DNA of 64,000 bases. It comes from Prorocentrum cordatum. Its lineage: Eukaryota. Below the pieces are notes generated by a model that was not told where the DNA came from, ran no database searches, and saw only the letters and a list, made by a program, of their open reading frames with translations. This document shows, piece by piece, positions 33,464 to 64,000 of the stretch. The translations under genes and the position numbers were made by a program. The stretch is taken from assembly GCA_963575745.1 (NCBI GenBank), contig CAUYUJ010000120.1, forward strand, positions 1 through 64,000, read 5' to 3'. The first letter of the stretch is position 1; each line of letters begins with the position of its first letter.

Positions 33464-33620
33464 CTTAAAGGGGGCGGCCCGGGTCCGGGGGCGCCCTGGG
33501 TCCGGGAAAGGCGACGGTTAGCGCCGAATGTTCGGAACACCCGGCGTTGTAGTTTGCGACACGAGGAACGCGAGCGGGGGCGCGGCCGACGGCGGCAAGC
33601 GCGGCCGCAAGGGCGATTGA

Positions 33621-36390: not shown

Positions 36391-38139
36391 AGAAGGAGTC
36401 CGCGCAGGAGAGGTGAGCGCGGGCCCAGCCGCGGGGCACGGGCATGCCTCAGACACGGGGCGCCGTGTACATCGACGCGCGATTGCGGAGCGGCGTCGGA
36501 CCCAGAACAGCGTTGGGGGTGCAGAAACGCGGAGCCAGAGCAGCGTTGGGGAGAGCGGCATTACTGGCGAGCCACGCCAGGGTCTTGCCTTCTTCACGCA
36601 GGTGTTCCATTCGGGGGGTTTGGTCACCCCAAGGTCGTTCTGCACCCCCGGAGCACCGTTACACTTTCTGGGGTCGGGGGACGGGGTATGGGTTGGGGGA
36701 ATGGGTGGGAGGATGGGGCCGTCGCGCGCCGTGTTCGCAGGTGGAGCGCGCGCGCGCGCGGAGGAGCGGGCCGCCCGCGTGCGCTTCGCGCCGCGGCGGG
36801 GCGCGTGCGATTCGCGGCGCGCGAAAGTTGCCAGGGGCCGCGCAGGGCGCGGCGCGGGGAATAGGCTGTCGGTGATTATGCGTTGACTTTAGGCTCGGGG
36901 AGGCTCGGGTCAGGGAACCATAATCATGACAGAAGGGGACGCCCGCGCGCGCTCGCAGGGACTGCGCGCATCAGAGCGCGCAATTGGATCGTGCGAGCAA
37001 AGCGCGTTGGCGACAGCGGTTGCTGTTGGTTTGTTTCCCACCCACCACACCCTGGGCCCCGGTGGGGTTACCGGGGAGAATTGGGATGGGCGCCGGCGTG
37101 GACTTCGCCGTGCAAGAGGCGATGCGCACCGGCTGCGAGGGGTCCTGCCTCGAGTCGGCCGAACGTGTGCGTCGCAGGTGCGAGAACGCCGCGCAGGTCA
37201 GCGCGTGCGGGGAAGGGGCCTTCCTTCCCTGGTGGCCGCTGGCAGCGGTCGCATCACCAGGTGTAACGTCTGACAGGTGCGCGACATGTTTTGCGCGCGC
37301 GAACACGCCCGCCGTATCCCGACCCCCGGTGGGGTGCTCGGGTCGGCGAGGGCGGCGCCGGACGCCGGCAGTGTTCGCTTTCCCCGTGGGGAGAGCGGCA
37401 TTACTGGCGAGCCACGCCAGGGTCTTGCCTTCTTCACGCAGGTGTTCCATTCGGGGGGTTTGGTCACCCCAAGGTCGTTCTGCACCCCCGGAGCACCGTT
37501 ACACTTTCTGGGGTCGGGGGACGGGGTATGGGTTGGGGGGAATGGGTGGGAGGATGGGGCCGTCGCGCGCCGTGTTCGCAGGTGGAGCGCGCGCGCGCGC
37601 GGAGGAGCGGGCCGCCCGCGTGCGCTTCGCGCCGCGGCGGGGCGCGTGCGATTCGCGGCGCGCGAAAGTTGCCAAGGGCCGCGCAGGGCGCGGCGCGGGG
37701 AATAGGCTGTCGGTGATTATGGCAGGAAGTGGAGGATGTGACGACACAGAGTGTTCAAGCTGTTGCGGAATCACCTACTTGTGAAGGTGAACTTATCAAT
37801 GCGGCGATTGTGTCTGCGGCCAGTCAACACCTCATGCACAGGGGCGGCAGGTGCGTCGTCCGAAGAAGCCCGAGGACTTGTGGAGGGTGCAGGAGGACAT
37901 GAAACAGCTTAGGAAGGAGAGGAGGTGGGAGGACTGCAAACAGTTACGAAGGCTTTACCGACCTGCGAAGAGAAGGTACCGTGCAGAGCTTGTCAGGTTT
38001 CAATTTACCAGGGAAGGACGGAGCAAGCGTACTTACAATCAGGTACCGTTGGAGGTGGTTCAGGAGGATGATGGGATACATAGATCGGAAGACTTGGAGG
38101 AGTGGGGGGCGGGGGTTGGACGGTTTGCGTGCGCCACTA

Positions 38140-41100: not shown

Positions 41101-41728
41101 ACATAATTACTTCGTAGAGCTCTTCGGGGTGGAGCTAGTTGGACCGGCCGGCCAGAAAGGACAAATTGGTGACTTTTGGTCGGTTTTCGAAAAATTTGAA
41201 AGAGATTGAACCATTTATTTAGAGAAAGCAGATTTTTGCGCGTCGCATTTGCATATAAACTCCTTTCTGACAGCAGCTCAGCTTTCCTGATGCACTTTTG
41301 CATGAGTTGACTTCCAGGAACTGAGCGAATATGAGCATCGACAATATCGAAAATGAAGATGTTCGAAAAATCTATATTTTTTAATTCTGTGTCGATTCTC
41401 AGCACTCTTACCAGTGGGAGGAGCTCTACGAGGTTCCTGGCGGTGACCAGGTTGACGGTTCACCGCCGGCGCCAGTTTTGAGAAACCAGATTTTCGGCAC
41501 CTGTAGGGTTATGGCGCCTCCGTCAGTATAATTTTCAGGCCCATAGGCATTATTATTATGAAAACACTTGGAGTAACCGACTTTTGATGAACACATAATT
41601 GCGCGATGTTCAAGTTTTCCCGATCTTGCCCTAGAGTGAGTCTTTCTGCATATGTACCGAGGAGTGCCGTGCGAGAAAAGAGCTCTACGAGGGCCCCGGC
41701 AGTGACCTGGTTGACAGTTTATCGCCGG
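38140..41728 (+). repeat. Nested hairpin-ended elements (family C, long and short families)
   Basis: Same terminal motifs and 178-bp units as 1-32175. Confidence 0.88.
40007..40407 (+). mobile_element. Short-family (~400 bp) element
   Basis: Flanks GGAGCTA-GT and TTGCCGACCCGAC rejoin to the consensus GGAGCTAGTTGGCCGACCCGAC. Confidence 0.85.
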
Positions 41729-44145
41729 TTTCTGACACATGTTCTTATGCATGGGCTCCAAGGGCGCATATATGAGCCCAGAAGGGAAACCCAGGGACAC
41801 CAGACAATTGTACGCCAACGTCAACGTAACATGGTCGAAGCACTGAAGCACGTCTGGACATCCAAGGTACAGTGATTCACCTTTGCCCCAAAGACACGCG
41901 TGTTGTGAGAGCCTCTTGAGCACCGTCATCATTTCATGTGTTCTATCACTTAGACATAAGAGGTATGAGGCATATCTGCCTAGTGTCTTTGAGCTGTGTC
42001 ATTTTCGGGCACTTCGGTATCAATGTTTCAAGGGTGTTTCTCCAGCACATCGGTGTGAGATGCTCCCGACTGGCCAAGCGCTGAAAGAAGTCACGCACGC
42101 GGCGCACACGCGCCCAGAGAAGCAACTTGCATCTCAGGCGACACGTCGTCGTACGACGCACCCCCTTTCTTCAGTCGTGCACGTTTGAAGGTGTATGGTG
42201 GGCGGATTGGGTGTCTTGGGATATTGCGCGGGAGGAGTGGAGAGCCCCTTCGGGTTCAAGGCGGTGTCCGTGTATCTCTGGGAGAAGGTTGTGCGGCAGT
42301 GGGAGGAGAACGACTATCGGTATGAGTTGAAACCCCCCTTGAGTGGAGGTAGGAGGAGGATTACACATGCTCTTTGGGCGGATAACTTGTAGGTGTGCGC
42401 ACGGTCCTTGGACGAACCTCGGGAGATGATGTCTATGCTCACGGTGCCGTTGGCTCAGGCGGGCCTGCGTTGGAAACCCTCATCGCTTGGATACCTTGTG
42501 GAGGCTGGCCTCGCTGTTCTGATGCCGAGCTTTGAGTGTACGTTCGCCAGATGTCTGTTCTGGGGGTGGAACTTTTCGATGACTGGAGTGATCATCGGGA
42601 CCTACTTTGTCATATGCAACGTGCCAGACGTGCGTGGATGTGTGATGTACAGTTCTATCGCTGTAGACAGTTACCTATGCGTGATCGCTATATGCGCTAC
42701 ATTGCACGGCGGATGAGGGTACCATTCAGAAGTTATATGCGTGGGAGGGACAACTGCTTGTGATTGTAGGGGGGCCTTCGCAAGAAGGCGAGTGAGGATT
42801 GGACAGTGTATACTCAGAGGCGGCTGCGATATGGTCGCCACCACTTCGCCAGGCATGGCTTCCAATCGCTTGTCCAAAGATTTCTCAGAAAGCAGTTTGA
42901 TTGGGCACAGGATGTGGCATCGTTCACTTGTCCGCACTCGCGTGCACCAACGATTGCTTCCACGTCAGTGGAGGAGGCACCAGCCAATCGGCGTCAGCAG
43001 ACGAGGATCTTCCGTGAGTCTGCGAGGGGCCAGCGACAAAGACTTTCGGCAGCCCAGCCCGCGGAGGCACCGACGCCAGCACCACCTGTGTCGGATGACA
43101 TGTTGAGGCCCTTTGTACTTTCACGTGTTGCGATGCTGCGTGGATTGGGGGAGTGGACCGAGAGGAGGGAGGCCATGATTACTGCAAGTAGGAGGACGAC
43201 GGAGATAACCAGACTAAGGGCAGGTGGTTACCTACAGGCTACAGGCCGTGGGACTTCTTATTTGCGCAGGCTGCTGGTGTGAACTGGTGGCACCATCTGA
43301 ATTGGAGCGAACATGGTTTTCGCGAGTTTGCCACTGGTCGACTGTGCGCGGCGGGATTCTCACATATGTTGGAGGGCTCTATCTTAAAGAGGAGGGAAAT
43401 CAGATACACAGAGAGGAGGAGGGGGAGGAGGACAAACAGCCAACACAGGCGGCGCTTGATCGTATTGCCAAGCGCCTTGCTGCCAACTTTGAAAGTGAGA
43501 TCCGCTTCGAACGACGAGGCGGAGTTGCGATGGAGCTTCTAGGTGACTCCATGCTGATAACCAATTGGATGAGGGGAGGGTGGAGCTACAACAACAACAT
43601 ATACCGATCGCAGGTGAGGGAGGTTGTTGACTTGCTAGACGGTGCTTGCCGTAACTTTAATCTGCAGGGCCCTGCCACAGGGTATGTTCTATGGCGTCAT
43701 CACGTTCGTGAAGGCAATGAGCGTGCAGACCGACTTACTTGGGAAATCAGACATCTACCGTTACAATCGAGGTATAGAAGCATTCAACAACATATAAACA
43801 ATACTGAAACATTGATCGCAATCCGTGGTGCGTACGACGGTGGCGTTAGTAGTGCAGGTGCGGGGGGAGGATGGTGGCTGGATGGAGAGTTCACTAGTGC
43901 GCACTCTGGTGAAGGGGCTGGTGATAGCCTGCGCACGTTTACCCGTGCATTGGCGGAGGAGGCTTTCGGCCTGCTTCCCGATGCGACGGTTGCGCAGTGT
44001 GAGCTTGAGGCCGTTTCGAGACTTGCCCGCTCTGCTTGCAAGATACTCCAAGAGTATGACGTTTTTCAGGGTACACCCAACCCGCAGGGGCACCAACCCG
44101 ACCGCCCTTGTAGGGCCCTGTGGTCGGACCGCAATCCGCAAAAAA
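41729..44145 (+). mobile_element. 5'-truncated, 5'-inverted decayed LINE (RT plus RNase H) with ~24-bp TSD
   Basis: Minus-strand RT pieces at 41729-42175 (LIPK..RQICL; DVLQCFDHV). Plus-strand GGVESP, LWADN and RNase H ORF 43224-44207. TSD 41705-41728 vs 44146-44169 (21/24 identical). Confidence 0.85.
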
Positions 44146-47100
44146 ACTTGGTTGACGGCTTATCGCCGGCTCCAAGTAATTGTGCTCGGTTTAATTGGAT
44201 TTCTTGAAATCTGAATGGTCGTTAGAGCTAGTATTTTTCCCCCCCTCTTCGATCTTATGTCCGCTCGCCATCTTGATCTCAGGTCGATCGGGTACATATT
44301 ATTGCCAAAAAGCACTCTGGCGGCGCTGCGTTCCGCCCCGCACGGCCGCCCTGGGCTCCCTGCGCGCGCGGGCCCGGGGGCGCGCCGGTTGGGCGGGCGC
44401 GCGCGCTCGGGCAGCGCGGCGCGCACATGCGCGCGCCACACGCACACGCGCGCACGCGCGCACCACGCGCAAAAACTCGCACGCACGCGCACGGACGTCT
44501 GTACTATGGGTATTATTATTACGCATTGTGGCGTGGCTTGCCGTGCTTTTGGATTGCTACGTGCGCGAGCAGCTGCCTTGTGGTTTCACCTGCTTGCGTT
44601 CGCAGCCGCGCCCGACGGTGTCAGGGCCGCCGTGTGTTCTACTGCTCGGCTATCCGGGTTTTGGACGCCAGCAAATTCGACCTCTTTCCCGCTCGCCATC
44701 TCAATCTGAGGTCGACCGGGTACATATTACTGTCAAAAAGCATGTGGGCAGGATCGATTGCTCAGTGTTCGCTTGACAGGTGCTGTCCTTTTTCTGAACT
44801 TAACTCGAGCTGCAGATAAGCTAACGGGCTGTTCGGCACAGCAATCAGAGAAATATCACTAGGAGCGTTATTCTGAAGTATCTAGATGCCTGAACTCGGT
44901 CTGGCACCATAACTAGGTCAGAACAAATTATTCGTATTCTGGATTTTTTCACAGATGATTATGAGTTTATCGATGTAACTCGAGCTCCAGGTGAGGCACA
45001 GAGGTGTTCGGCAGAGCAATCGGAAGAAAGTCATCGGAAGCGCTAGTTTGAAGTATCTAGATGCCCGAACTCGGTCTGCTAGTAGTACCTGGGTCTGAAA
45101 ATGAATTTGTACTCTGATAGTTCTTCCCAGATGGTGATGAGTGTCTTGATGTGATTCGAGCTGCAGATAATATACATATCTGTTCGGGGCAGCAATCGGG
45201 AGAAAATCATCAGAAGCGGTAGCTAGACGCCCGAACTCGTTCTGCTACCTGAGCTGGGCCGAACAATTATTCTCTCTGCTACTTTCCTATAGTACGATTG
45301 CTTTCTTGAGCTGTAGATGAGCTAGAGAGCTGTCTGGCACAGCCATCGTCAACATCATGAGAAGCGCTCGTCTCAAGTATCTAGATGCCTGAACTCGTTC
45401 TGCTTCCAGAGTTGAATCAAACAACTAGTCGCTCTATTAGTTTTCCCAGACGATGCCTTTCTTGATGTAGCATTTGCAGCAGATAAGATCAGAGCTGTTC
45501 GGCACAGCAATTGGACGAATGTCATCAGGAGCACTATTTGAAAGTATCTACATGTTTGAAATCGGTCTGTTAGCAGAGCTGGAACCAAACAAACTTTTCG
45601 TACTGCTGCTCCTCCTCCTTTTCCTTTTTTACTTCCTCCTTCTCCTTCCTTCTTCTCGTCCGTCCTCCTCCATGAAACCGCGCCCTCGCGCGCGCGGAAT
45701 GCGAGATTGCCGCGCCCGCATTTCAGTCATGTATATCGAGGAAGCTCTACGAGTTCCCCGCGGTAACCAAGGTTGACGGTTTACCGCCGGCTCCCAGTTC
45801 TGGCAATCTCACGACGTCGGTTACATCGAATCGCCCCAGGGCAGCCAGGATGAGGAGGATGTACTGGTAGCGGTGTACCACGCGCGATATGACTCGTAGA
45901 TCTTCGCTAAGAGCGAAGCAGCGAAACTTGAAGGTAATTCCGGCGCGCTGGGGGGCTAAGTGGCAGCAAATCTCGACGGATTTTGTTGCATATGTTCGCT
46001 CGGTTTAAATTCGATTTCTCGGAATTCAACTATTTGGTAGAGCTCTAGAATTTTTCGCTTCATATTCGATCTTATTCCCGCTCGCCATCTTAATCTCAGG
46101 TCGATCCGGTACATATTACTGTCAAAAAGCATGTGGGCGGGATCGGCCGTATAGTGTCATCTTGACAGGTGCAGTCGGTCTTCGGAACCGAACTCGAGAT
46201 GCAGATGAGCTGCAGGGCTGTTCGGCACAGCAATCGAGAGAGAATTATCAGAAGCGCCAGTCTCAAGTATCTAGATGCCCGAACTCGGTCTGCTACCAGA
46301 GCTGGGTTCGAACAACTATTCGTACTCTGCTATTTTTCGAGAACTGATTATGAGTTTATCGCTGTAACTCGAGCTGCAGATGAGCTACAGGGCTGTTTGG
46401 CACAGCAATCGAGAGGAAATCATCAGGAACGCTATTCTCAAGTATCTAGATGCCCGAAATCGGTCTGCTACCATAGCTGGGTTCGAACAACTGTTCATGC
46501 TCTGCTATTTTTCAGAGATGATGCTGAGGTTCTTGGACTCGAGCTGCAGATGAGCTGGAGATCTGTTTGGCACAGAGCCGAAAATAACAATCATCAGAAG
46601 CGATAGTCTGAGGTATCTAGATGCGCCAACACGGTCTGCCACTACAGCTGGGCCCGAAAACTAGTTGTGATCAGGCATTTTTCTTAGAGATGATGATGCG
46701 TTTCTTGAGGTAACTCGAGCTGCAGAGGAGCTACAGGGCTGCTTGGCATAGCAACCGTAATACACTCACTCATCATGGGTGCTAGTCTCAAGTGTCTAGA
46801 TGCCCAAACTCGGTCTGCTTTCGGAGGTGGAACCAAAAACACGATTCGTACTCTACTATCTTTTCAGAGATGACGATGCCTTCCTTGATGTAGCTCGAGC
46901 TGCAGATGATATTAGAGCTGTTCAGCACAGCAATTGGACGAATATCATCAGGAACGCGAGTTGCAAGTCTCTTCATGTTTGAAATCGGTCTGAGCCCAGT
47001 GCTGGAAACAAAGAACTATTCGTACTCCTGTTCCTCCTCCTGTTCCTTCTCCTCCTTCTCCTCCTCTTCCTCCTTCATCTGCTCCTCCTCTTTTTCCTCC

Positions 47101-47590
47101 TGTTCCTTCTCTTTCTCCTTCTTTCTCCTCGTCTTCCTTCTCTTTATCATCATCATCGCCCCTCTTCTCCCCCGCCACCCTCCCCCCTGCAGCTGCGGGG
47201 CTGAGAATTTGACAGGCAGACGCGGCATGACCCACTACAGGTGCGAAAAATACCGGTTCTCACAACGGATTTTCAAATCTCTAACAATATTCGCCCAACC
47301 GCCCCAAAGTTCCCACATTGTCCGCCCAGGCCGGGGGGGCCAACTAGCTCCACCCCGCGCCGGAATTCCATTAGTTCATCGATGCCGAAGAGCTCTACGA
47401 GGTATGTTTGCCCAACCGACCCAAAGTTCCCACATTGTCCGCCCGGGCCGGGTGGTCGAACTAGCCCCACCCCGTGACGGAATTTCTTTAGCTGATTGAT
47501 GCCGACGAGCTCTACGAGGTACTGGCCCCCCAGCGCGCCGGAATGACTCTCTAGCTTCACCGCTTCGCTCTTAGGGAAGCTCTGCGAGTC
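44146..47590 (+). repeat. Diverged long-family (D) elements with degenerate ~178-bp units and CT-rich microsatellite
   Basis: 5' end GACTCGTAGA at 45891, hairpin end 45741-45798, CT tract 47025-47190. Short minus-strand 5' ends at 47220-47590. Confidence 0.75.
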
Positions 47591-47591
47591 A

Positions 47592-48516
47592 CTGTGATCC
47601 CGCCGTGTCTCAGCAGTCGTGCCCCCTTATGGGCAATATGTGTTTCAGTATCCGCCCCCACATTCCACTCCCGATACACCCGCTTCCACGTGCCCCTTCC
47701 CAATTCGGGACTCAAAATATTGATCTGTTGGCTCGTGCCACTAAGGCAGTTAGTTCTGTATGCTGTTGATGATGCGCTCATATCTATGTATTTTTATATA
47801 TATATTACATCTCATTGTAGCGGCGGTATCTTCCATTCAGCCGACTGCCTACAATTTGGCTCTCACCTGTAATCTCCAAAAATATGCCATCGGGGTTGAG
47901 TCGCCAGCGAGTCTCGTCTTCCTTCAGAGCGGCCACTCTTTTCGCTGATCTATCCAGACCCTTTTAAAGCTGGTCCTCCGTCATCTCCTCTCCCCGACCG
48001 CCCTGAGATACCTTTCCGAAATCGGATCGCGCAGGGGGCAACCCTCCAAGACATAGACTAACTGGAGCTCTCTCAAAGTACCTCACAGTACTCCGTAAGA
48101 AATCTTTCCAAGCAGTTTCTGTCCAGATCATATCCTGAGTCCACGGGGGCCCCCTGGTGAGTTCGAGGAGTGACCTTCGCGGCGGTAGCCCGTATAGTAG
48201 TTTCTCCACAGCGGGCCCTCGCAATAGCCTTGGCCTCCTGGGAACCGAAGGACCTGCATAATGCATCGTTGCTCCGTCCAAAGACCCGACGCATGCGACG
48301 TGCACAGGCAGCTCCGCATAGAAGCAGTCGGCCTGCCCCGACGACCCCGGCAACGCGCGCGTTTGGGAGCAGGAAGCACTCAGGGTTCAGGGGGGTCAGA
48401 AAGGCCCACAGCACGTCTCCTCATTCTCGTAGTCTCACGACGTCGGTTACACCGAGTCGCCCCAGGGCAGCCAGGATGAGGAGGATGTATTGGTAGCGGT
48501 GTGCCACGCGATATAT
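47592..48516 (-). pseudogene. Decayed 3' fragment of a fourth LINE of the same clade
   Basis: Minus strand reads GLDRSAKRVAA..LEITGESQIVGSRLNG..KRVYREWNVGAD, matching ALDRIAKRLAA, ELKGDSQCVIRRLEG and VYREGNAEAD in the other LINEs. Confidence 0.7.
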
Positions 48517-50057
48517 GACTCGTAGAGCTTCGCTAAGAGCGAAGCAGCGAAGCTAGAGAGTAATTCCGGCGCGCTGGGGGGCTACTTGGCAACAGCAAAT
48601 TCGGAAGTTTTGCATATTTTTGTTCGGTTTAAATTCGATTTCTCGGAATTCAACTATTTGTTAGAGCTCTGGTATTTTGGTCTCTTCATATTCGATCTTA
48701 TTCCCGCTCGCCATCTTAATCTCAGGTCGATCCGGTACATATTACTGTCAAAAAACAGGTGGGCGGGATCGGCTGTTTAGTGTCATCTTGACAGGTGCAG
48801 TCGTTCTTCTGAACCGAACTCGAGCTGCAGATGAGCCACAGAGCTGTTCGGCACAGCAATCGAAAGATAATCATCAGAAGCGCCAGTCTTAAGTATCTAC
48901 CTGCCCGAACTCGGTCTGCTACCAGAGCTGGGTTCGACAAACTATTCGTGCTCTGATATTTTCGAGACATGATGATGAGTTTATCGATGCAATTGAGCTG
49001 CAGGAGCTACAGAGCTGGTTTGCACAGCAATCGAGAGGAACTCATCCGGAGCGCTAGTCTCAAGTATCCATATGCCCGAAATGGGTCTGCTACCAGAGCT
49101 GGGTTCGAACAACTATTCATACTCTGCTATTTTTTTGATATGACGCTGAGGTTCTTGATGTAACTCGAGCTGCAGATGAGCTGGGGATCTGTTTGGCACA
49201 GGAACCGAAAAGCAATCATCAGAAGCGATAGTCTGAAGTATCTAGATGCACCAACACGGTCTGTTACTACAGCGGGGCCCGAAAACTAGTTGTGCTCGGT
49301 ACCTTTTTTAGAGATGATGATGGGTTTCTTGAGATAACTCGAGCTGCAGATGAGCTACAGGGCTGCTTGGCACAGCAATCGTAAGACACTCGTTCTGAGC
49401 GCTAGTCTCAAGTTTCAAGATGCCCAAACTCGGTCTGCTTCCAGAGTTGGAACCAAAAGCACTATTCGTCTTCTGTAGTTTTTTAAGAGAAGACGATGTC
49501 TTCCTTGATGTAGCTCGAGCTGCAGGTGATGTTAGAGCTGTTCAGCACAGCAATTGGACGAATATGGCCAGGATCGCGAGGTACAAGTCTCTTCATGCTG
49601 GAATTCGGTCTGCATCCAGTGTTGGAACCAAACAACTATTCGTATTCCTGTTCCGCCTCCTCTTCCTTCTCCTCCTTCTCCTCCTCCTCTTCCTCATTCA
49701 TCTGCTGCTCCTCCTGTTTCTCCTCCTGTTCCTTCTCTTTCTCTTCCTTTCTCCTCATCTTCCCCCTCTTCATCATCGTCATCATCATCGTCCCTCTTCT
49801 CCCCCATCCACCCCCCCTCTGCTCGTCGTCCTCCTCTCCCTGCTCCCCCTCCTCCTCCTCCTCCTTCTCTTCCTTAACCTCCTCCATCTCCTTGTTCTCC
49901 TCGCTCCTTCGTCTCCTCCACGCCCCCTTCCATGAAACCGCGTCCTCGCGCGCGCAGAATGCGAGATTGCCGCGCCCGCGTTCCGTTCATGTTTATGGAG
50001 GCAGCTCTACGAGTTCCCGGCGGTAACCAAGGTTGACTTGGTTGCCACTGGGGCTCG

Positions 50058-51734: not shown

Positions 51735-54700
51735 ATGGAATGGCCGCCGTATGGGTATCGTTGCGACGGAAGCTTTCCACCGCATGTCCAACTTGGGCTG
51801 CCGTTTGTTTGCGTTGCAGGAGTGCCAATGGATGTCATCAGTTGCTGCTCTCCATGCGGGTTTGATTGCATATTCTCCTCTCTTGTTGCTGCTGGCGAGG
51901 GCAGAGCTGGCATCTTCTTTGGTGGATTTCTGCGTGCGAGTTTCATTGGGCATCGTGAGGGTAGCAGGTCTTGCATTTGTGCCTTCCAGGGGCTCCTCTT
52001 TGTTTCCGTCTACTTGCCGCATCGTGAGACAATAGGTAAGGCGCGCGGTGAGCAGCTAGAAGCGTTTGGGATGTACCAAGACATTTTGACTAACATGACG
52101 GGTGATGTCATGGATCTAAAACGTAAACATCGTATCACGAAGATGTTCTGCGTGACCTGTATGCTCGCTCCCTTGTCACTGGTATGGCTACGCTCAAGCT
52201 CTCTCTGGCTAACACGTTTGGGGATCGAGTCGCTACTAGCCGTTTACCGTCGGGTCAGGAGTCAGTCTTGGACTATCTTGCTGTGCCGAAGTCGTGGTCG
52301 TGCTCACCTGTGGTGTCTTGGTTGTTCCCGCGCGCTTGTCGGAATCTGCCGAATGTGGAGATGCTCTGGAGTGACCACAAGCTGTTATCGTTGCGCATTC
52401 CGTCTCCTGTGCAGTTAGGCGGCCAGCGCCCCAAGTCCTCGAGTAAGTGGAGGGTGGTTGCCCGGAGGGAGGTTGACCAGGCGCGTCTGTTTCACCATGC
52501 ACTGTGCCCCGATGGTTTCGAGAGGCCTGTACCTGCTGTTTGTAGCCCGCGTTATCGTGTTTGCTCTCGTGGACCGTCAGCCTCTGGGGCTAAGATGAAG
52601 GAGGCTGCTGTGGCGAGCCAATCGTGCCATGTGTTCGAAGGCCCGTCGGATCTCTTCCCGGGGTTGTCTGAGGAGCAGGTTCGGTTCCGCCGGGAGCATT
52701 ACCAGCGTCACAGAGATTGGAAGCGGGGGCTCATTGAGGAGGAGGAGTTCAATAGGAGTAGGAGGAGGTGGACGGCTATCAGAAGGTCGTATCGTAGGCA
52801 GCTTATTGTATATCGTCATCGTGAAGGGCTTAAACATGAGTCTCTGGTCACGCACATGGAGGTGTGTGGGGGATGCTGACGGAGGATCGTTCTAAATGGG
52901 TGGAGGGTCTATCTCAGCATGCCAAATCAAAGTACGAGGATGAGGAGATGAGGATCCTGAATAACAGTTGTCTTGAAGAGCTTCGTGTACGTGCTGATTG
53001 GGCTGCCTCTGTGGGTTCCAGTGGGCCTCGTGAGTGTCCGATCTCAATGGCGGTGCTTCTTCGTGCGCTTTCTAGGCTCAAGGAGGGCCGTGCTGTGGGA
53101 GCAGATGGGATACCTTGCACTGTTCTCAAATCCTTGGCATGGTCTTCTCTTCGTGTGATATCATCGTCGTTCCCGTTACTTTATCGTCGTGAAGTGTCAT
53201 CGCCAGATTCCTGGCGCCAGTTACGTGTAAGCCTCATGTTGAAGGGTCCCAGGTTTCGCCGTTTTGGAGAGTCTCGTGCACTCGCAGTTCTCAGCGTATT
53301 CAGTAAGTGGTATTCGTGCTGCCTCACCCTGTTATTGGACGAGCATGTTCGTCGTGCTCTGCCGTGTACGGGCTGCAATCTCTACGGATTCTGCTCTGGC
53401 CACCGTTTCCGCGAGATCACGGCGGGCCTCAATGTCTTGGCTCATCACTCGAGGCTTTGGGGTAAAGATCAGAACGTCTTCATTGCGAGTCTGGATGTTG
53501 GGCAGGCGTTCGACCACTTAACGATTCCTCTAGCTAGTGCGAGCCTGCAATGGTTACAATATAATGATGAGTTGATCTTCGCTCTTATGGAAGGTGCAGT
53601 TACTAATGCCGCTGACTTTCAATTTCAGGAGGTTCGTTCGCATCCGATGCCCTGGGATTCGTGCATCCGTACTGGGTCTCTGGAGGGCCCACCGTTGTGG
53701 AATGCGCAGTGTATCAGGATGTTTGGGCCTGTATATCAGAATTGGGAGCGCCTGGGAAAGGGCCTTGTCTTGTCGGCGGAGGCTGGAGGCATCTGTGTTT
53801 CTCACTTTGTATGGGCAGACAACGTCATTCTGGTGGCGGGCTCCCTCCCCATGTTGACCTCGATGATCGTCGATCTAAGCCAGCCCTGTACCGCGGGAAA
53901 GGGAGGGGGATCAGAACATCTCGGTTGTGGGCGGGTCGCGCTCGTTCGTTGACGTGGCTGTGGATGATGGTCGCAAGAGAAATCGCAGGCAGGAAATTGG
54001 TGAGATGCAGAGGCAGGCTAAACGTGCCCGTGGGACCTTGTCTCAAAACACTGTCCGTGTGCGTGATGCCTTTGAGCCGTCCCGTGCTGTGCCACCGCCT
54101 GAGAAGAGACGGAGGCTGCGTTGGTCCCCCGAGCCTGTGGCCCCATGTGTGTCCAGCTTTGCTCAGTCTCGCCTGTTGATGTTGCACGCTTCGGGTTCGT
54201 GGACGCGGGCTCGCGATACCCTGATCCATCTTGCTGGGGCCAAGGAGGCTCGGGCGTATACCCGCTTGAGGGGCCAGAGTACGAACCTGAAGGGGCTCAC
54301 GCCGTGGCACCTTATCTTCGAGACGGTGGGGGGCGAACTGTGGCAGTGTAACCTGAGTTGGTGTGAGCACGGCTGGTTACCTTTCGTTCGTGGCGTTTGT
54401 GGTCACTTTGATTTGCCTGATATCCTGCAGTGGTGTGTACTTAAAGACCCCCATCCCTGGAACCCTAAGGAGAAGGAGGATGAGGAGGTGAATGTGACGG
54501 AGGAGCAGAAGGCTAAAGCAGATGATAAGTTAGCTCAAAGACTGGGAGAGTGTACCTGGGAGAGTGTACCTGGGAGAGTGTACCTGGGCATCTTGCGGTT
54601 GAGCTGAAGGGTGACTCGCAATGTGTGATCCGACGGCTGGAGGGATTATATTTCACGGGGAACATAGGATATGCGTCCAAGGTGGCGGAAATGCAGAACC

Positions 54701-55164
54701 TTTTGTGTGATCCCTCCGTCTCCTGTCTAATCCGTCCTCCTGAGTATGGTCGCGATATCTTTAAGTGGGTGTATAGGGAAGGAAACGCGGAGGCTGATGA
54801 AATGACCTGGAACGCTCGGACTGGCAATTGTGGTCTCTGGCATGACGACGACTTTTTGAAATTTATCAAGTTGAACGCAGTTCTGATCGACTGTATCCGT
54901 GGTTCTTTCGACGGAGGTCGTTCCCAACATGGTGTCGGGTGTGGCTGGGTGCTTGATGTGAGGTTTGCTTCTTTCTCTCGCAATATTCTTCCCCCCTCTT
55001 CCTCTATCGTCTGTGGCTGGCGCCGTGTTGCCTCTGAGGCCTTCTTTCTCCCCTCCTCCTGCACTATCGCATCGGCTGAGCTGTCTGCCGCCCACCGGCT
55101 CCTCTCTGCAGGAGTTCTTGTGATTCTGCAAAAGTCAGGCTTCATAGGCATGTGTAGCTCGTAG
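51735..55164 (+). pseudogene. LINE ORF2 (APE endonuclease, RT, permuted RNase H), multiply frameshifted
   Basis: APE: ALQEC, SVYLPH, LDYL, SDH. RT: AVGADG, LDVGQAFD, CIRTGSLEGP, WADN. RNase H: GDS, YREGNAEAD, FDGG, AELSA. Confidence 0.9.
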
Positions 55165-55659
55165 TCTGGACGTGAGCACGTCCTGCCATGACTCTACGCA
55201 AACGCAAACGCAAAACCAAGGTTGACGGTTTTCCGCCGGCTACCAGTCTATGTTCCTCACCTCAGGGTCCGCCCCCTAGCCCACCACCTCAGCCCCCTCG
55301 TCAACATCGCACACCGTGCATACAATATGTTTTGCAAAACACCACTGCTCATATAAAGTAAGTTGCACAAGTGACGGGTGGCAGGAGCTGGGCAGTAGAG
55401 AACGTGCATGTCGAAACCGGGCTCTCCAATCTTCGGCCCAGTCCTCCGCGGGCCGCTTCCGTCGACAACGCATTGCCGGTGGAAATCTCCCCTCCTCCGC
55501 ATGTATCGTCAACAACTTCAACGCATGTGCATCGCATGTTACACCCTCGATGCCGCGCAACAAGTTACTGCGTATGCTGATATAATATATATGCTACTTC
55601 ATCGTTAACAAAATGAATAGGCTCACGTAAAAGGATCCGTCCATCCAACAACTTTTCTT

Positions 55660-58600
55660 TGCCTCGGCCAATCGTGCAGGCGCGGCAATCTTGCATTCCG
55701 CGCGAGTGAGGCTGCTATATCCTGGAGGAGGACGCGGAGGAGAATAATGAGTGAGGAGGAGAAGGGGCTCGAATAAAATAGATAATTTATGATGATCTCA
55801 TAAACAGTTAGCAGAGTAGAGATAGTTGTCAGGTTCCAGCTCTGGCAGCAGACCGAGTTGATGCATCTAGATACGTAATATTTTAGCGTTCCTGATGGTT
55901 TCATTTCGATTGCTGTGGCGAACAGCTCTGTAGCTCATCTGCAGCTCGAGTTAAGTAGAGAAAATCAGCATCATCTCTTTTTAGAATACATAGCAGAGTG
56001 CGGATAGTTGTATTGTCAGAGCTTTGGTAGCTGACCCAGTTCGGGCATCTACATACCTGAGATTAGCGCGTCTGACGATTTCCTCTCGATTGCTGTGCCG
56101 AGCAGCTCCTTGGCTAATTTGCAGCTCGAGTTAAGTTAGGCAAATGCTAATCATATCTTTGTAAGCAGCAGACAACGAATCGTTTTTTGGTTTCGGCTCT
56201 GGTAGTAGACCGAGTTCGGGCACCTAGATACTTAAGACTAGCGCTCCTGATGATCTCCTCCCGATTGTTGTGCCGAACAGCTCTGTAGCTGTCGAGTTAG
56301 ATAAATAAATCGTCATCATCTCCTTAAGCAATAACAGAGTACGAGTATTTTTTGGTCCCAGCTCTGGTAGCAGACCGAGTTCGGGCATCTAGATGCTTGA
56401 GACTAGCGCTCCTGGTCGTTCCGTTTCGATTGCTGTGCCGAAAAACTCTGTAGCTCATCTGCAGCTCGAGTTAAGTTAAGAAAACCGACAGCATCTGCCA
56501 AGATGACACTGAGAAGCCGATCCCGTCCGAGTGCTTTCAGACAGTATCAACCCGATCGACTTGAGATTGAAATGGCGAGCAGAAGTGAGATCGAAGATGG
56601 TGGACAATCTCAGAACTCCAGCAATTGTTGAAATTCGAGAACATAGTTTTAAATAGGCCAAACCAAAACAAAACTGGGGGCCGGAGGTGGGCCGTCAACC
56701 TTGGTTGCCGCTGGGAACTCGTAGAGCTTCCTTCTGATGTGCATGAGTGGCGTGCGGGCGCGGCAATCTCGCGTTCCCCGCGCGCGAGGGCGCGGTTTCG
56801 TGGAGGAGGGCGTGGAGGGGAAGAGCGAGCGAGGAGGGGGGGGGGAAGGCTGAGGAACACAAGCAGGGGGAGGAGAAGGGGCAGGAGAAGGAGAAAAAGG
56901 AGGGGGAGGAGAATGAAGGGGGGGGGATAACGAGCAGGAGGGGGGGGAAGGGTGGAAGGGGAAGAAGGAGGTGATGATAATAATGGTGATGAGGCGGGGG
57001 AGGGAGAGGAGGAGAAAGAGAAGGAGGAGGAGGAGAAAGAAAAGAAAAAGCAAATGGAGAGGGAAGAGGAGGGGGAGAGGAGGAGGGGGGGGGAGGAGGA
57101 GAGGGAGAAGGATGAGAAGAAGGATAATGAGGAGGAGGAGCAGAAGAAGAAGAAGGGAATCTCCTGTTCAGCGGTCTGCTTCCAGGCTCCTTGGCTTGCC
57201 TATAACTCCAATTATGTGAAATCCAACGCCGGCTCTCATAAAACATAATTAGTACATGAACGCAACTAATTATTTGATTGCAGTTTTGGTAGCAGACCTC
57301 AGGCGTTTAGACAGTGTCGATTGATGTGCATCTCAGCTCCTTCGCTGGCCTAGAGCTCGAATGTAATCAGGAAACGAGGGCCATCTCTCGTGCAGCGTTT
57401 ACATTTCGAATAGTTTTCCAGTTGCAGCTGCTGTTGCAGGCCAAATCCGACGCCTCGATACCGCAGGCGCCTGTACCTGGTGGCCTTCTGCTTCTCAAAG
57501 TGCTGTTCTGCTCGCAGCCTACAGCCCAGATGCAGTAGAGAACACAATCAGCAGCTCTCATGCAATAGCAGAGCACGAATAGTTCTTTGATTCCAGCTGT
57601 GGTAGCAGACTGGGTTGCGGCATATAGATACTTGAGAGTGGCACTGCTGATGATGCCCTTTTGAGTGGTGTGCCGAGCAGGTCTGTGGTTCATCTGCAGC
57701 TCGAGTTATTTAAAGAAAATCATTCTTAAACAAAAAGTAGCAGATCACGAATAGTTTTTTGGTTCCAGCTATGCAAGAAGACCGAGCTCGGGCATCTAGA
57801 TACTTAATACCAGCGCTCCTGATCCTTTTCTTTCGATAGATGTGCCGAACAGCTCTGTCGCTGATCTGGAGCTCGAGTTTAGATAAGACCATTATCAGGA
57901 TCGTAAGACAATTACCAGAGTACGAATTGTTTTTGGTTCCATCTCTAGTACCAGACCGAGTTCGGGCATCTAGATACTTCAGACTAGCGCGACGGATGAT
58001 TTCCTTCGACTGCTGTGCCGAGCAGCTCTGTAGCTCGTCTGTAGCTCGACTTTAGTTGAGAAAACCGACAGCACCTGCCAAGATAAGTCTCAACGGCCGA
58101 TCCCGCCCGCGTGCTTTCTGATAGAAGTATCTACCCGATCGGCATGCAAGCAAGATGGCGAGCGGGAGTAATATCGAATATGGGTAGGCGAAATATTAGA
58201 GCTCTAACGAATTGTTGAACTTCGAGAAAACGATTAAAAATAGGCCAAGCAAAGACAAAACTTCAAACTAGCCCGCCGGCGCGCCGGAATTACTCTCTAG
58301 CTTCGCCGCTCCTCTTAGGGAGCTCTACGAGTCGCATCCGTCGAGATTTTTGTCCAGCGCGCCAGAATTTCCTGGGGCCGGCGGGAAACCGTCAACCTTG
58401 GTTGCCGTCAGGAACTCGTAGAGCTTCCTTGCGATATGCGTGAAGTGCATGCGGGCGGGGGAATCTCGAATTTCGCGCGCCGCGCGAGGTGCAGTTTCAC
58501 GGAAGAGGACGTGGAGAAGAAGGGTGATTGAGGAGAAGAAAGAGCTCGAATGAAATAGAGAAAACGATTTGTTTATGTATAGATGTTGTAACAACAAAAT

Positions 58601-58831: not shown

Positions 58832-59901
58832 GGTATATTCAAAAAACAAAAAAAGCAAAGAGTACGAATAGTTGTCTGGTGCTAGTTTTGGTAGCAGACC
58901 GAGTTTGGGCATCGAGATACTTGAGACTAGCGCTCTTGATGACTCCCGTACGGTTGATCTGCCACTAAACAGCTCTGCAGCCCATCTGCAGCTCGAGTTA
59001 ACCAAGCTGATAAACTCATCATCATCTTAAAACACAGCAGCATACGAACAGTTTGTTATACCAGCTCTGGTAGCAGACCGAGTTCGGGCATTGAGACTAG
59101 CGCTTCTGATGATTATCTTGCGATTTCGGTGCCGAACAGCTCTGTCGCTCATCTGTAGCTCGAGTTAAGTTCAGACAATCATCGTTATCTCTTCGAGAAT
59201 TAGCAGAGTACGCATAGTTTTTTTGGGGTCCCAGCTCTGGCAACATACCGATTTCAGACATCTAGATACTTAAGACTAGCGCTCCTGATGATGCCTTTTT
59301 CGATTGATGTGCCGAACAGCTCTGTAGCTTATCTGCAGCTCGAGTTAAGTGGAGAAAACCGACAGCCTCAATATCACACTCAACAGCCGACCCCGCCCAC
59401 GTGCTTTTTGAGGGTAATATCTACCCGGTCGACCTGATATTAAGATGGCGAGCGGGAATAAGACCGAATATTAGTACAATACATATTAATGCTTCAATGA
59501 ACTGTTGAATTTTGAGGACTTCAATATTTCAAAAAAGACAACATCCGTCGGGATTTTTCGGGCCAGCTAGCCCTCCACCGCGCTGGGATTATTCTCTAGC
59601 TTCGCCGCTTCGCTCTTCGGGCAGCTCTACGAGTCATTCTCTAGCTTCGCCCCTTCGCTCTCGGGGGAGCTCTACGAGTCATTGTCCGCCTGGGCTGGGT
59701 GGGCGCACTAGCTCCATCCCGCGCCGGAGTTCCTCTAGCTCGTCGATGCCGAAGAGATCTACGAGGTACCCTTTAGCTTCGCCGCGTCGCTCTTCGGGAA
59801 CCTCTACGAGTCATGTTCGCCCAACCGGCCCAGAGTTCCCACGTTGTCCGCCCGGGCCCGGTGGGCCGACTGGGAGCCCGCGGTAAACCGTCAAGCAGGT
59901 T
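55660..59901 (-). repeat. Diverged family D elements in minus orientation with GA-rich (56800-57155) and (TA)n (58782-58831) microsatellites
   Basis: Reverse-complement hairpin ends at ~56672-56732, 58372-58428 and 59869-59901. Stacked 5' ends at 59590-59812. Confidence 0.8.
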
Positions 59902-62900
59902 CTTTGCGGTCGACTGTGCAGGCTTTCCAGCCTAGTCGGAGCAAGAGGCGGGCGCATCGGGAGCAGGCGGAAGCCTCGCCGATCCAAACGATCAGAGGCG
60001 TAAGCCAGCTCTTATTTGGAGGATGAGAGGTCAAGCACACACACACACGACACACACAGGCAAGGCGTGAGTGAGCACAATCACTTATTCACATCATGTC
60101 CTGTCCGGAATACGCATGTACAACCCGCGGCACAATCAGAATCGTATGCTCAACGGCCGAGATCTCGGCATCTGTCACTGTCGAAGTTGGGTCAAGCGAG
60201 AACGCCGCACTATACACCTCCGTCCAGATAATATCATGGCTGAGTGGCTGCCTTGAGAGCCTCGATATACGTCCAACATCTATCCAGCACCCGACTCCCA
60301 CGCCGTCGCAAGAGACGCCACAATCGAATCCAGCTCTGATGGCGCAAACGCGAAACACCTGATCTAACTGTGGGGCGTAGGGCCCAATCCTGTCCCGAAA
60401 CACTGGTGGCCCGACACGGGCCGTATGAGTGAGTACATCTGCACGCATGTTCCATTCCCTGTATGTGTGGTCAACAATTTCCCTCCCATGAGAGGCAGGC
60501 CTAATTCCGAATCTCTGACACATGTTGTCTAGTTGGTTAATCATTCTGTTAATCCTATCTTGATAAGTGCGATTTAGCACCCTCCAGACACCCTGAAGCC
60601 AAGACACCACCAGAAGACTGTCCCCAGAGATGTACACCGGAATCCCGAAAGAGTCGAGATCGTACACAACCCCCTTCATTTTTTGTAACGCAATACGTTT
60701 GGCCAGTTCGTCGTTGAAAGCTGGAGTCCCCTTTTGAGCCCCATATGTGTGTAGGTCGTTTTGTGTGATAGTATGCACCTCCTGCAGGGCCCCACCTGTT
60801 GTACCGTACCCTTTTCTCTTCTGAAAATAGCTCAGCATCGTCCGTGTACACATGTGCTCGCAGAACTGAATGTAAGCTGCATCTGTCGGCACAAAGGACT
60901 CCCGCCACTTGAGTCCGTAGAATTCACAGAAAGAAAATAGCCAGCATCTCTGGCCAATAGCTCTACCTGAGCTGATATGTCTCCTCTTGAGCTGTGAAGC
61001 CTCTTGGAAGCGAAATATCCCCCGCAGGAACTCAGAAGCATCCGTCCTGAGTCTGTCCCACAGTGGGCCATATGCAATCGTAGTCATGTGGTGGTCTCGC
61101 CAGTTACGCTGCGTCGAAGAAATGTCCTCATGAGAATCAGCACGCAAGATATAGATAAAATTTGCAGCATCCTTGGCGGAGTTCCACACCATACGGAGAA
61201 AGCGCTGCACCAACGTCGCAAATCCGTAGGATCGAAATTGCTCTCTGGCCTCATGGTACCGTCGTCGGTTCCAGTCCGCCATCGTCTCCTCCTCCCTCCT
61301 TGGCCGTCGAAACATACGGCACAAACGCCAACCCTCGAAGGCATTGAGCATATGTAGTGAGGAGGTATCTGCAGTACAAGTCTCCAGACAATACAATGCC
61401 ATACTCTGCACCTTATCCTGATAACGACAAACTTTATCACGAACAGCAACCGCTCTGTTACGAAAGAAATCCGCCTGTCCGATGGAACAAGCACGAGCCT
61501 CTTTGATGCGATACTCTACATTAGGATGTGCAGGCAATAGGTAGGTATAATATATCTCATGACCCAATACTTTCAATCTGCACACACGTCGAAGACTAAA
61601 GCCCTGATACCCAGAGCATGCAGGAATAATCAAATCCTCACTGGCAGGTATATGTCCATCTCCGTCCACTCTCGCATTTTCCCCACATGTCATGTACAGC
61701 AGGCTGCTATCCTTCCACCTCATCCCCCAGTCGTGTAATGGTAGGGTTAGATCGTGAATCATCTGAGCCAGCATGGTTGAGGAGGCAGACACAAGGTAGC
61801 AATTGTCCGCCCACACAATGTGGTTCACGACTGTCCGTCGCTCATACTCTCCACAGACACCCTCCAGCACATACCCCACTCCTCGACTGTCCCACTCCCG
61901 AAATATTGGTCCCACATGGCACATGTGATAAGGTTGAAGAGAAGAGGCCCCTCAGGGCCGCCCGTCCTGATACAGACGTCCCAATTGATATTGTGAATAG
62001 CCATGCCCTCGACAACTAACGACCCCGTAGTGCAAACCAATGGTGCAAGTAACGCATACTGAAGATAGACAAGAATATTGGCATGGCACATAGCTCTCTT
62101 AGCGTTTTGAAGGCTGCAGTGGTCAAACGCTTGTTTGATATCGGCATTCGCAATATGGACCGTTTGATCCTTTCCCCAGACGTCCCCATGTTCAGCAAGA
62201 GCCTTGAGGGCCCCCACAATTTCCACAGTCTTACGTCCCTCCTGGAAGCCGTAGATGCCCAGAGGTCCCATGAGCCCAGCCCGAGAGACAAATTGTTCGA
62301 CCAAGATCACCACACAAGCATAGTACCAACGGCTGAGACTGTTTTGCAGACAGAGGTACCGTGCATCTGTCAATGATGTCAAGCTCGGCAGCTTGGGCAT
62401 GAAGGCGATCAAAATCTGCCTCCAGTCCTGCGGAAACTGCCGTGTCAATCGAACTATCCCATCAAACATCCGAGCTACACTGCGCAAAGTCGCCCACGGC
62501 AACACCTTGAGTAGTTCGCAAGGCAGCCTGTCGGGACCTGTGGCGCGCGTGGACTTGAGACGTGACCGTGCCTGGCACACCGCCGCCATTGTCAGTCCTT
62601 CTGTGCAGTACCCATCACATAGGTTCTGTTGTGCATCCTTCCTCAACTCCTCCAACATCTCCACATCCCGTCCTCTGACCTCCTCCGAAGTAGATCTCTG
62701 TCCGGTGTACGCTCTGATCTCCTCCGCCCACTCCTCCGTGTCCTCTGATATCCGTCCCTGCACAATAAGATGCTTGATGCTGTGACGTACTTTGCGCCTG
62801 CAAGCTGGGGAGGACCACGCGGCCAACGCCGCGCGATATTCCCTCCGGTGTCTGTTGGCACGTCTGCGCAAAGTGGGTACGTCCACTGACACAGGCAAAG

Positions 62901-64000
62901 GCTTCTGTCGCAGAGTCTCCTGGCAAGCCGTGAGCTCAGCAGGTCTATCTGGCGGTAGTCCCCGTCCCGCGGTGGCAGTCGTGAATCGGATTTCCTCCTG
63001 CTCTGTGCAAGCCCGAATAGTAGTCGACACAAGGTCCCCAGGAGAACAAGTAGTGTTGGCATCTCCTAAGACCCGATCGATTTCCTTTCGTGCCATGTTG
63101 AGGTCTCCCCAATTCACAGTCTTATAACCCACCAGACTCTTTTCACGAGCTGCCGTCGGGATGCTACGTTTGACCAGCTCATCGCCTGGATCACTAAAAG
63201 TCCCCTGAAGCAGGCCGTGGTCACTAAGACGACTACGATTTGTCTTTCCCCCATTATACATAATCGTTCCAACCGTCAACTTATCAATCACCCACGTCCT
63301 GGGAACAGAAATGTAGTCAAGAACCTTCTTACACGTCCCCCACCGAGATGTTTCGTAACTCTCCCATGTATGTAGTCGTCGTGGCAAGAAAAAATTGGCA
63401 GCCTTCATCCCCAGGCGCCCTAAAAAGCAAAGAACACGCTCGCGAAGTTGCTGTCGTACATCCCTCCTCTCCCGTTGTGCACCTCCCTCCTCGCAGGTCC
63501 TCCTCTCCTCCTTGGTAGCGCATCCCACCGCCTCATAGACTGTCCCAGTGCGTGAGCACTGCAGCTGGGTGGATGGAGGCAGCTCGACGTTGGCATCGAG
63601 CAGCACAGATACCGTCGCCCCTTTCCAGCGGCTGCGCAGAGTGAAAATGACTGACTCGAGTGTGTCCAAAACCCCACACTGCACATCTACAGCGTTCTCG
63701 ACGCCGGGGTCGGGAAGATACGCAGAGGCAACAATCACAGGAGCACTCCCACTACCGCAGACCACCACGCAGAACCGTTCGTACTGACACAGTGATTCAC
63801 GCACACATGTACTCCACTCTTTGTTACATAGTAACCCACACTTACCGTCACAACTCACGCGATATGATAGACCACGCCGTCTGATATATGCATCGAATTT
63901 GCCTCCGAAAAGATTCTGGCATTCCTGAACACCCCAGATGCTATCTCGCATATAGAGAGGCTCCTCAGGATCTCATTCCCCTTGAAATTAGCCGACCCCG
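59902..64000 (-). mobile_element. APE-type LINE running off the window; 3' end inside an element hairpin
   Basis: Minus-strand 3' junction ..ACCGCAAAG|AACCTGCTTGACGGTTTACCGCGGGCTCCCAGT. Confidence 0.9.
60089..63951 (-). CDS. LINE ORF2 (~1290 aa): APE endonuclease, RT, permuted RNase H; single frameshift near 61915
   Basis: APE: GVQEC, SAYLPD, LDAN, LDYI, SDH. RT: ATGPD, YGFQEGR, ADIKQAFD, CIRTGGPEGP, WADN. RNase H: GDS, HTYREWNMRAD, FDCG, AEISA. Confidence 0.92.

Follow-up and report, generated by a model that had tools for sequence, protein, structure and literature searches.

A LINE ORF2 in Prorocentrum cordatum that probably ends in a circularly permuted archaeal-type RNase H

Can a natural retrotransposon carry an RNase H whose two halves have changed places along the chain? 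This question is raised by a stretch of 64,000 nucleotides of Prorocentrum cordatum DNA (Eukaryota; assembly GCA_963575745.1, contig CAUYUJ010000120.1, positions 1 to 64,000 of the forward strand), which we call the window throughout and which contains three copies (A, B and C) and a fragment (D) of a long interspersed nuclear element (LINE). A first-pass annotation, made from the letters alone, had noted that at the C-terminal end of open reading frame 2 (ORF2) of this element the type-1 RNase H motifs run in the order GDS, RExNxxAD, (F/Y)D(G/C)G..G.G and (A/C)E..A, and had proposed a natural circular permutation of an archaeal/plant-like RNase H, fixed in this clade. We found this order in all three copies, exactly where it had been reported. 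The proposal is borne out by the swapped homology of the two halves, by a one-domain structural model and by database relatives that share the order. We conclude that the C-terminal ~190 residues of ORF2 are very probably a type-1 RNase H of the archaeal/plant kind (archaeal-type RNase H, aRNH; RVT_3-like) that has undergone a natural circular permutation. Whereas the canonical chain order is β1-β2-β3-αA-β4-αB..αD-β5-αE, the chain would here begin at β4, pass through αB/αD, β5 and αE, cross a linker of ~12-20 residues, continue with β1-β2-β3 and end in αA; on folding, these parts would come together again as a single RNase H-like domain in which the D-E-D-D carboxylates and the arginine of aRNH hold their usual places.

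Copy A is an almost full-length LINE ORF2 on the minus strand that extends from the window end to the stop codon at 60089-60091 and occupies two frames. It is co-linear with a full-length database relative (P0017, 1306 residues) over P0017 residues 5-1296, with one frame change near 61910-61951 (tblastn places residues 5-691 at 63942-61912 and residues 642-1296 at 62080-60110). Compared with copy A, contigs of close relatives have one additional base at 61910, so that the frameshift is either private to copy A or an assembly error. The reverse transcriptase (RT) family RVT_1 of Pfam is found in the relatives P0017 (E 2.6e-8), P0032 (E 1.1e-7) and P0021 (E 3.8e-13), and copy A itself gives a weak match (residues 573-683, E=0.0085) that falls short of the Pfam cut-off. 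P0032 also has a sub-threshold match to Exo_endo_phos (E 0.05), an SDH-like motif was noted by eye in copy A, and a phmmer search of the PDB with P0017 returned 0 rows. The 5' parts are missing from copies B, C and fragment D, and a 25-nt motif common to copies A, B and C follows the stop codon. With an RT upstream in the same ORF and 5'-truncated copies that share a common 3' end, the element is, judged by its sequence, a LINE ORF2 of the kind without long terminal repeats (non-LTR).

Read from the N- to the C-terminus, the domain of copy A shows ISGDS, HTYREWNMRAD, GFDCGVSCDGVGVG and TDAEISAVE, and a codon check found 5 of 5 key residues (D-E-D-D plus Arg) retained. The domains of copies A, B and C are 27-35% identical to each other over ~185-212 residues (35% over 185 residues for copy B versus copy A), and thus their common motifs are conserved rather than recently copied; the three-copy alignment has 30 invariant columns, all motif residues among them. 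A piece at 47650-47870, which had been called consistent with the same arrangement, lies within fragment D and is indeed so: the first half alone is present there, with YREWNVGAD in the ORF translation (tblastn matches at 47751-47608, 48014-47814, 47793-47623 and 48134-47823).

The arrangement is not confined to the window. A profile of the three window copies, searched against 1.84 billion representative proteins, matched 394 proteins at E<=1e-3, 124 at E<=1e-10 and 30 at E<=1e-30. Many of these matches span profile positions ~2-209 in a single C-terminal stretch, i.e. they are co-linear with the permuted order, and full-length, putative APE-RT proteins of 1299, 1306 and 1455 residues with RVT_1 are among them and end in the same motif order. 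Named relatives are P0252 (Prorocentrum cordatum, 50% identical) and four short EukProt entries (Pyramimonas sp., 81-91% identical to copy A), the remainder being unlabelled entries from the sources jgi, ena and ncbi; one of the two host labels could be contamination. A separate homologue search with copy A residues 410-620 gave 1 match, and with an alignment of 62 family sequences 11 matches, few of them named; a pattern scan of metagenome loci with one of the alignments gave 528 pattern matches, with no relative among them. For the analysis of conservation, 159 family sequences (3 from the window and 156 from the database) were aligned to a hidden Markov model in the permuted order, and their mutual identity is only ~20-40%. 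As far as these sequences go, the permuted arrangement is fixed in the whole LINE family.

Both halves of the domain resemble type-1 RNase H, and they do so in swapped positions, as had been predicted for profile searches. When the PDB was searched with a profile of 62 family sequences (hmmsearch), type-1 RNases H made up the 6 best of 9 rows: 4e19_A, the RNase H1 of Halobacterium (E 1.2e-8), 3u3g_D (E 5.2e-6), 3aly_A and 2ehg_A (E ~3e-5), 4h8k_A (E 2.7e-4) and 3hst_B (E 1.2e-3). On 4e19_A the matching stretches are exchanged, profile positions 200-269 falling on chain residues 66-127 and profile positions 113-187 on chain residues 134-197. For a profile-profile comparison with hhalign we collected 92 RVT_3/RNase HI proteins and aligned the 45 with a length of 125-165 residues to obtain a canonical profile. 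Family positions 107-186 matched canonical positions 77-145, the C-half (Prob 99.0, E 2.6e-18), and family positions 205-281 matched canonical positions 4-69, the N-half (Prob 92.9, E 3.6e-7); the second half on its own matched the same positions 4-69 with Prob 94.8 and E 4.9e-8. In controls with shuffled columns (60 per half) the score did not exceed 13.7 for the N-half and 16.1 for the C-half, compared to 44.9 and 107.2 observed, and reversed alignments scored 8.2 and 19.5, respectively. In addition, 40 of the 62 family members match RVT_3 of Pfam at E<=1 (best 5.8e-8), and language-model features place the domain closest to the clusters RVT_3 and RNase_H (score 0.92). Archaeal-type RNases HI are its best relatives among solved structures, in agreement with the label 'archaeal/plant-like' of the first-pass annotation.

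It might be argued that the unusual order is an artefact, either of a rearranged or misassembled locus or of short motifs met by chance, for the window is extremely repeat-rich and motifs such as GDS are common. However, three copies that are independent, diverged and spread over both strands have this order in common. Database proteins from several sources, dozens in number, are co-linear with all of it, and full-length ORF2s end alike. The RNase H region of copy A is tiled by short contigs, 88-99% alike, which stem from two studies (one DNA run, three poly(A) RNA-library runs), and the shuffle controls speak against chance. We regard an artefact as barely credible.

The structural model likewise gives one compact domain and not two separate ones. 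For a construct of 291 residues (60092-60964, minus strand, with the 62-sequence family alignment), AlphaFold2 returned pLDDT 83.2 and pTM 0.73; residues ~100-285 have a pLDDT >90. The domain alone (192 residues, alignment of 73 sequences) was modelled with pLDDT 95.0 and pTM 0.90, and thus both halves are predicted to form one rigid body. Its elements follow one another as β4-αB-αD-β5-αE-β1-β2-β3-αA: β4 at 9-15, helices at 18-25 and 33-53, β5 at 65-67 and αE at 74-85 in the first half; a short strand (89-92) and a short helix (99-104) at the αE-β1 junction; and strands at 105-119, 122-135 and 147-158 and a final helix at 164-187 in the second half. In the model, this set of elements is that of RNase H rotated by half a domain, and the domain as a whole is, on sequence profiles, homologous to RNase H but departs from the canonical chain order. 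The sheet order and active-site geometry of RNase H would accordingly be expected in the permuted domain, as we infer from the model.

Could the chain instead end in one and a half domains, that is, an active canonical RNase H whose N-half lies unrecognised upstream, followed by a C-terminal FDGG..AE part that is a relic of, or an accessory derived from, a truncated second copy? Retroelements commonly have dual RNase H domains (PMC5348765, in the accessible part of the article), a conserved helix (..LAKRIA..) precedes β4 in the position that αA has in a canonical domain, and the alignment of 3u3g_D to the long construct (VIA-align) reached model residues 61-187. The region upstream nevertheless shows no sign of an RNase H half in our comparisons. 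The first-pass annotation had seen no DG motif upstream of GDS and had named a canonical N-half at this place as the result that would overturn its proposal; in our comparison, the upstream residues 1-105 gave no RNase H signal against the canonical profile (hhalign, Prob 1.0%), and in the 291-residue model the first ~100 residues contain no β-strands but only helices, and most of this part has a pLDDT of 36-70. Neither this upstream part nor the pre-β4 helix resembles the family's own αA or N-half (hhalign, Prob <=0.3). Moreover, no columns of the family are better conserved than the β1 Asp and the αA Glu downstream (kept in 128 of 130 and 107 of 108 sequences covered), which would not be expected of a relic, and the domain reaches its pTM of 0.90 without the upstream part. 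One and a half domains thus seem very improbable to us, and a single permuted domain remains our reading.

A number of results weigh against a permuted RNase H. By themselves, the window copies reach no Pfam RNase H family at E<=10 (both frames of copy A and all three domains), and phmmer with the copy A domain found no RNase H in the PDB; a formate-dehydrogenase row in the latter search (E 0.27) was set aside as a chance match. With a profile built from 18 sequences of the second half only, the PDB search gave 0 rows at E<=10, and 1 of these 18 sequences matched RVT_3 of Pfam. The assignment of the N-half therefore rests on the profile-profile comparison and on the second stretch of 4e19_A, which is conditional (12 bits). 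Foldseek listed no RNase H in the PDB for either model, with a best TM <=0.35 (the top matches, PelC and LptE-like folds, were rejected at this level), and the best whole-domain matches of VIA-align (Z 5.3-5.7) are all unrelated α/β folds; these, i.e. CinA, HcgF and RlmH-like folds, were regarded as common α/β arrangements. VIA-align did place the C-halves of 3u3g_D, 4e19_A and 3aly_B on the domain, but on its first 87-89 residues only (Z 3.9-4.1, 23-26% identity). That sequential fold searches miss RNase H is what a permutation predicts; as they give no whole-domain match, we infer the three-dimensional identity with RNase H from the model. Finally, copy A is frameshifted and copies B and C are decayed, and hence no copy in the window need be functional.

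The latter point also bears on the possibility that the permuted RNase H fold is catalytically dead or repurposed, i.e. a structural or nucleic-acid-binding module comparable to the retroviral connection domain, with a host RNase H removing the hybrid. Many LINEs are without an RNase H and depend on the host enzyme (PMC5348765, as described in its accessible part), the window copies are broken, and in 5 of 76 relatives one of the four acidic residues is missing. On the other hand, the acidic catalytic residues, which had been described as retained in the window, are so across the family: D-E-D-D is kept in 71 of the 76 relatives that span all four catalytic columns, and D-E-D-D together with the Arg in 70 of 76. 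Among the sequences covering the respective column, the β4 Asp is kept in 110 of 116, the Arg of RExNxxAD in 139 of 143 and the last Asp in 138 of 143; N172 and A175 of the same motif are nearly invariant, too. At an identity of ~20-40%, such conservation is what selection on catalysis typically leaves, and we consider loss of activity unlikely. The Arg is, moreover, a signature of aRNH (PMC5348765, accessible part). With its profile similarity and with D-E-D-D preceded by Arg, not His, before the last Asp, the domain is by these sequence characters a member of aRNH/RVT_3.

A permuted domain of this kind would have its new termini at the αA-β4 junction and its old termini bridged by the linker, and both chain changes would fall outside the segments with catalytic residues. 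Once reverse transcription of the element RNA at the nicked target is done, the domain would degrade the RNA strand of the hybrid and thereby allow second-strand synthesis; by analogy with the RNases H of other LINEs, its role is likely the removal of RNA from the RNA:DNA hybrid during target-primed reverse transcription. As to its origin, the simplest route would be a tandem duplication of aRNH, after which the N-half of the first copy and the C-half of the last were lost. This is suggested by the dual RNase H domains known in retroelements (PMC5348765, accessible part) and by the tandem repeats of P0112, a database match from outside the window. P0112 is 569 residues long and contains three RNase H repeats in tandem, each of them canonical in order, with Pro/Ala-rich linkers between them (RVT_3 97 bits); it is matched by the family profile solely via its C-halves. 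A remnant of the αA of the first copy might survive in the conserved helix before β4, an idea that the comparison with the family's own αA and N-half neither supports nor excludes; among the family relatives no intermediate form between tandem and permuted aRNH was found. If the domain arose in this way, it probably records a past stage with dual RNases H.

The coordinates of the element copies and of their parts are compiled in Table 1.

Table 1. Positions of the LINE copies in the window and of the parts of their putative permuted RNase H
Feature	Position	Strand	Content or basis
Copy A, ORF2 5' frame (715 codons)	61825-63972	minus	endonuclease-like N-terminal region and first part of RT
Copy A, ORF2 3' frame (620 codons and stop)	60089-61951	minus	remaining RT, helical linker region, putative permuted RNase H
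Copy A, conserved helix directly before the domain	60677-60724	minus	PAFNDELAKRIALQKM; family consensus ..aKR.r..e....W; modelled helix 81-96
Copy A, first half of domain (canonical C-half: β4, αB, αD, β5, αE)	60392-60667	minus	GDS and YREWNMRAD
Copy A, Asp codon of GDS	60620-60622	minus	codon verified
Copy A, Arg codon of RExNxxAD	60458-60460	minus	codon verified
Copy A, Asp codon of RExNxxAD	60437-60439	minus	codon verified
Copy A, linker from αE end to β1 start (old C-terminus to old N-terminus)	60356-60391	minus	short helix in model
Copy A, second half of domain (canonical N-half: β1, β2, β3, αA)	60107-60355	minus	FDCG..G.G and TDAEISA
Copy A, Asp codon of FDCG	60323-60325	minus	codon verified
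Copy A, Glu codon of AE	60164-60166	minus	codon verified
Copy A, 25-nt motif in 3' untranslated tail	59870-59894	minus	pattern search
Copy B, decayed ORF2 from RT to end, several frames	52855-55164	plus	tblastn of P0017, P0032 and P0065; translation
Copy B, putative permuted RNase H	~54586-55149	plus	
Copy B, stop codon	55162-55164	plus	
Copy B, GDS	54610-54618	plus	
Copy B, REGNAEAD	54775-54798	plus	
Copy B, FDGG	54907-54918	plus	
Copy B, AELSA	55075-55089	plus	
Copy C, 5'-truncated ORF2 remnant	42228-44207	plus	tblastn, translation
Copy C, putative permuted RNase H	~43518-44072	plus	tblastn, translation
Copy C, GDS	43542-43550	plus	
Copy C, REGNERAD	43707-43730	plus	
Copy C, YDGG	43833-43844	plus	
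Copy C, CELEA	43998-44012	plus	
Fragment D, piece of a fourth copy: upstream helix region and first (GDS..RExNxxAD) half only	47608-48134	minus	tblastn

Hundreds of short contigs from marine-sample DNA and poly(A) RNA libraries map onto copy A, and the family is thus numerous in at least some plankton. As all runs consist of contigs, their depth and gaps are uninformative on the level of expression, and coverage of copy A by RNA libraries is no proof of transcription. In the 3' untranslated region of copy A, 97 bases (59958-60056, including a (TG)n-like stretch) are skipped by the contigs of relatives in 4 of 4 runs, where they carry 3 other letters; copy A alone thus has an insertion or expansion here.

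The 25-nt motif that follows the stop codons occurs at 26 sites of the window (329-59894; 0 expected), 24 of them on the plus strand. The sites are spaced ~1-2 kb apart over the first 40 kb (e.g. 17158-17182, with 45773-45797 and 55222-55246 as examples further on), and each of the copies A, B and C has one of them a short way downstream of its stop codon; probably the motif is a 3' tail module common to the LINEs and to many short non-autonomous or 5'-truncated elements. Positions 1-40000 form an array of composite repeats in the same orientation, with 177-bp tandem sub-repeats and other common blocks in families of 12-37 copies, and tandem arrays of 172-175 bp adjoining the LINEs (46191-47027 and 57566-57879) consist of the same kind of repeat. 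The region 32000-38000 has a G+C content of 0.62-0.68 (versus ~0.48-0.50 around it) and open frames of 371, 401, 421 and 284 codons on the plus strand, for which no Pfam family was matched; a Pfam search of 14 further long ORFs of the window gave nothing meaningful, either. Inverted LINE RT fragments lie beside copy C (41690-42128, minus) and just after copy B (55321-55674, minus), which suggests nested or rearranged insertions. CT/GA-rich simple sequence adjoins each LINE copy (46980-47260, 49540-50030 and 56540-57310) and contains long open frames on both strands, rich in Pro/Leu/Ser or in Glu/Lys/Arg; these low-complexity frames are probably non-coding. A dinoflagellate spliced-leader motif has 0 matches in the window.

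If the domain is a permuted RNase H, several consequences follow. A family of retrotransposon RNases H would be invisible to the gathering thresholds of Pfam and to Foldseek, and surveys that depend on them would under-count the LINEs bearing an RNase H. Circular permutation would join capture, duplication and degeneration into a connection domain as a way in which retroelements remodel their RNases H. RNase H is also a standard model of protein folding, and work on folding has made use of circular permutants engineered from the E. coli enzyme. A natural permutant that has kept its catalytic residues would test the effect of chain order on folding and activity, since here the helical β4-αE part would be made first and the β1-β3 meander with αA last.

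How new is such a domain? The first-pass annotation knew of no description of it. This holds for retrotransposons as far as full-text literature searches on circular permutation and RNase H go, which brought up no account of a permuted RNase H in these elements. It holds less well for the fold at large: CIRPIN (PMC13552848; preprint PMC12667903) reports, in the accessible part of the text, that two RNase H-like domains of the AlphaFold DB are related by a circular permutation, which it does not specify, while the literature search of its authors, as given there, names only the RNase T2/BECR case (PMC13552848). The CIRPIN pair is likewise a natural permutation within the RNase H-like fold class that sequential aligners miss. 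In the accessible text, however, its proteins, family and cut point are unnamed and 'retrotranspos' has 0 occurrences, so that the pair may or may not be the LINE family described here. With this in mind we lean slightly towards the view that no natural permutation of a bona fide type-1 RNase H had been described before the present domain, and that this domain is active, fixed in an apparently abundant LINE clade of marine protists and derived from tandem aRNH.

Among known systems, archaeal-type RNases HI (4E19; 2EHG and 3ALY of Sulfolobus tokodaii; LC11-RNase H1, 3U3G) are the nearest. Both halves are homologous to them at the profile level, and D-E-D-D, the Arg of RExNxxAD and the same set of secondary-structure elements are found in the permuted family. 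In contrast, the family runs from β4 to αE and then from β1 to αA, whereas RNase HI runs from β1 to αA and then from β4 to αE; it has an extra αE-β1 linker with a short strand and a helix, and its domain closes a LINE ORF2, with a conserved helix just upstream.

Non-LTR retrotransposons bearing an aRNH were reportedly described by Smyshlyaev et al. in 2013. LINEs of plants and oomycetes have captured aRNH, which is described and aligned in canonical order in the accessible part of the work of Ustyantsev et al. (2017; PMC5348765), where 'permut' has 0 occurrences. As far as the accessible text covers them, the Ta11-type L1 elements of plants, the L1 elements of oomycetes and Utopia likewise carry the aRNH at the C-terminal end of ORF2 in a LINE with RT and an endonuclease, the latter being putative in the permuted family. 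The Ta11-type and oomycete L1 elements differ, according to the same text, in having a CCHC motif upstream of the aRNH; in the permuted family, no conserved Cys/His pattern was seen by eye in the printed upstream regions of relatives. A tandem state that could give rise to a permuted domain by loss of the outer halves is exemplified by P0112 and, within the accessible descriptions, by LTR elements (Tat, Archon and Chronos) and by retroviruses, where a connection domain accompanies the RNase H. In these tandem or dual RNases H every repeat is canonical and one copy degenerates as a whole, whereas the permuted family would have a single domain with its halves swapped.

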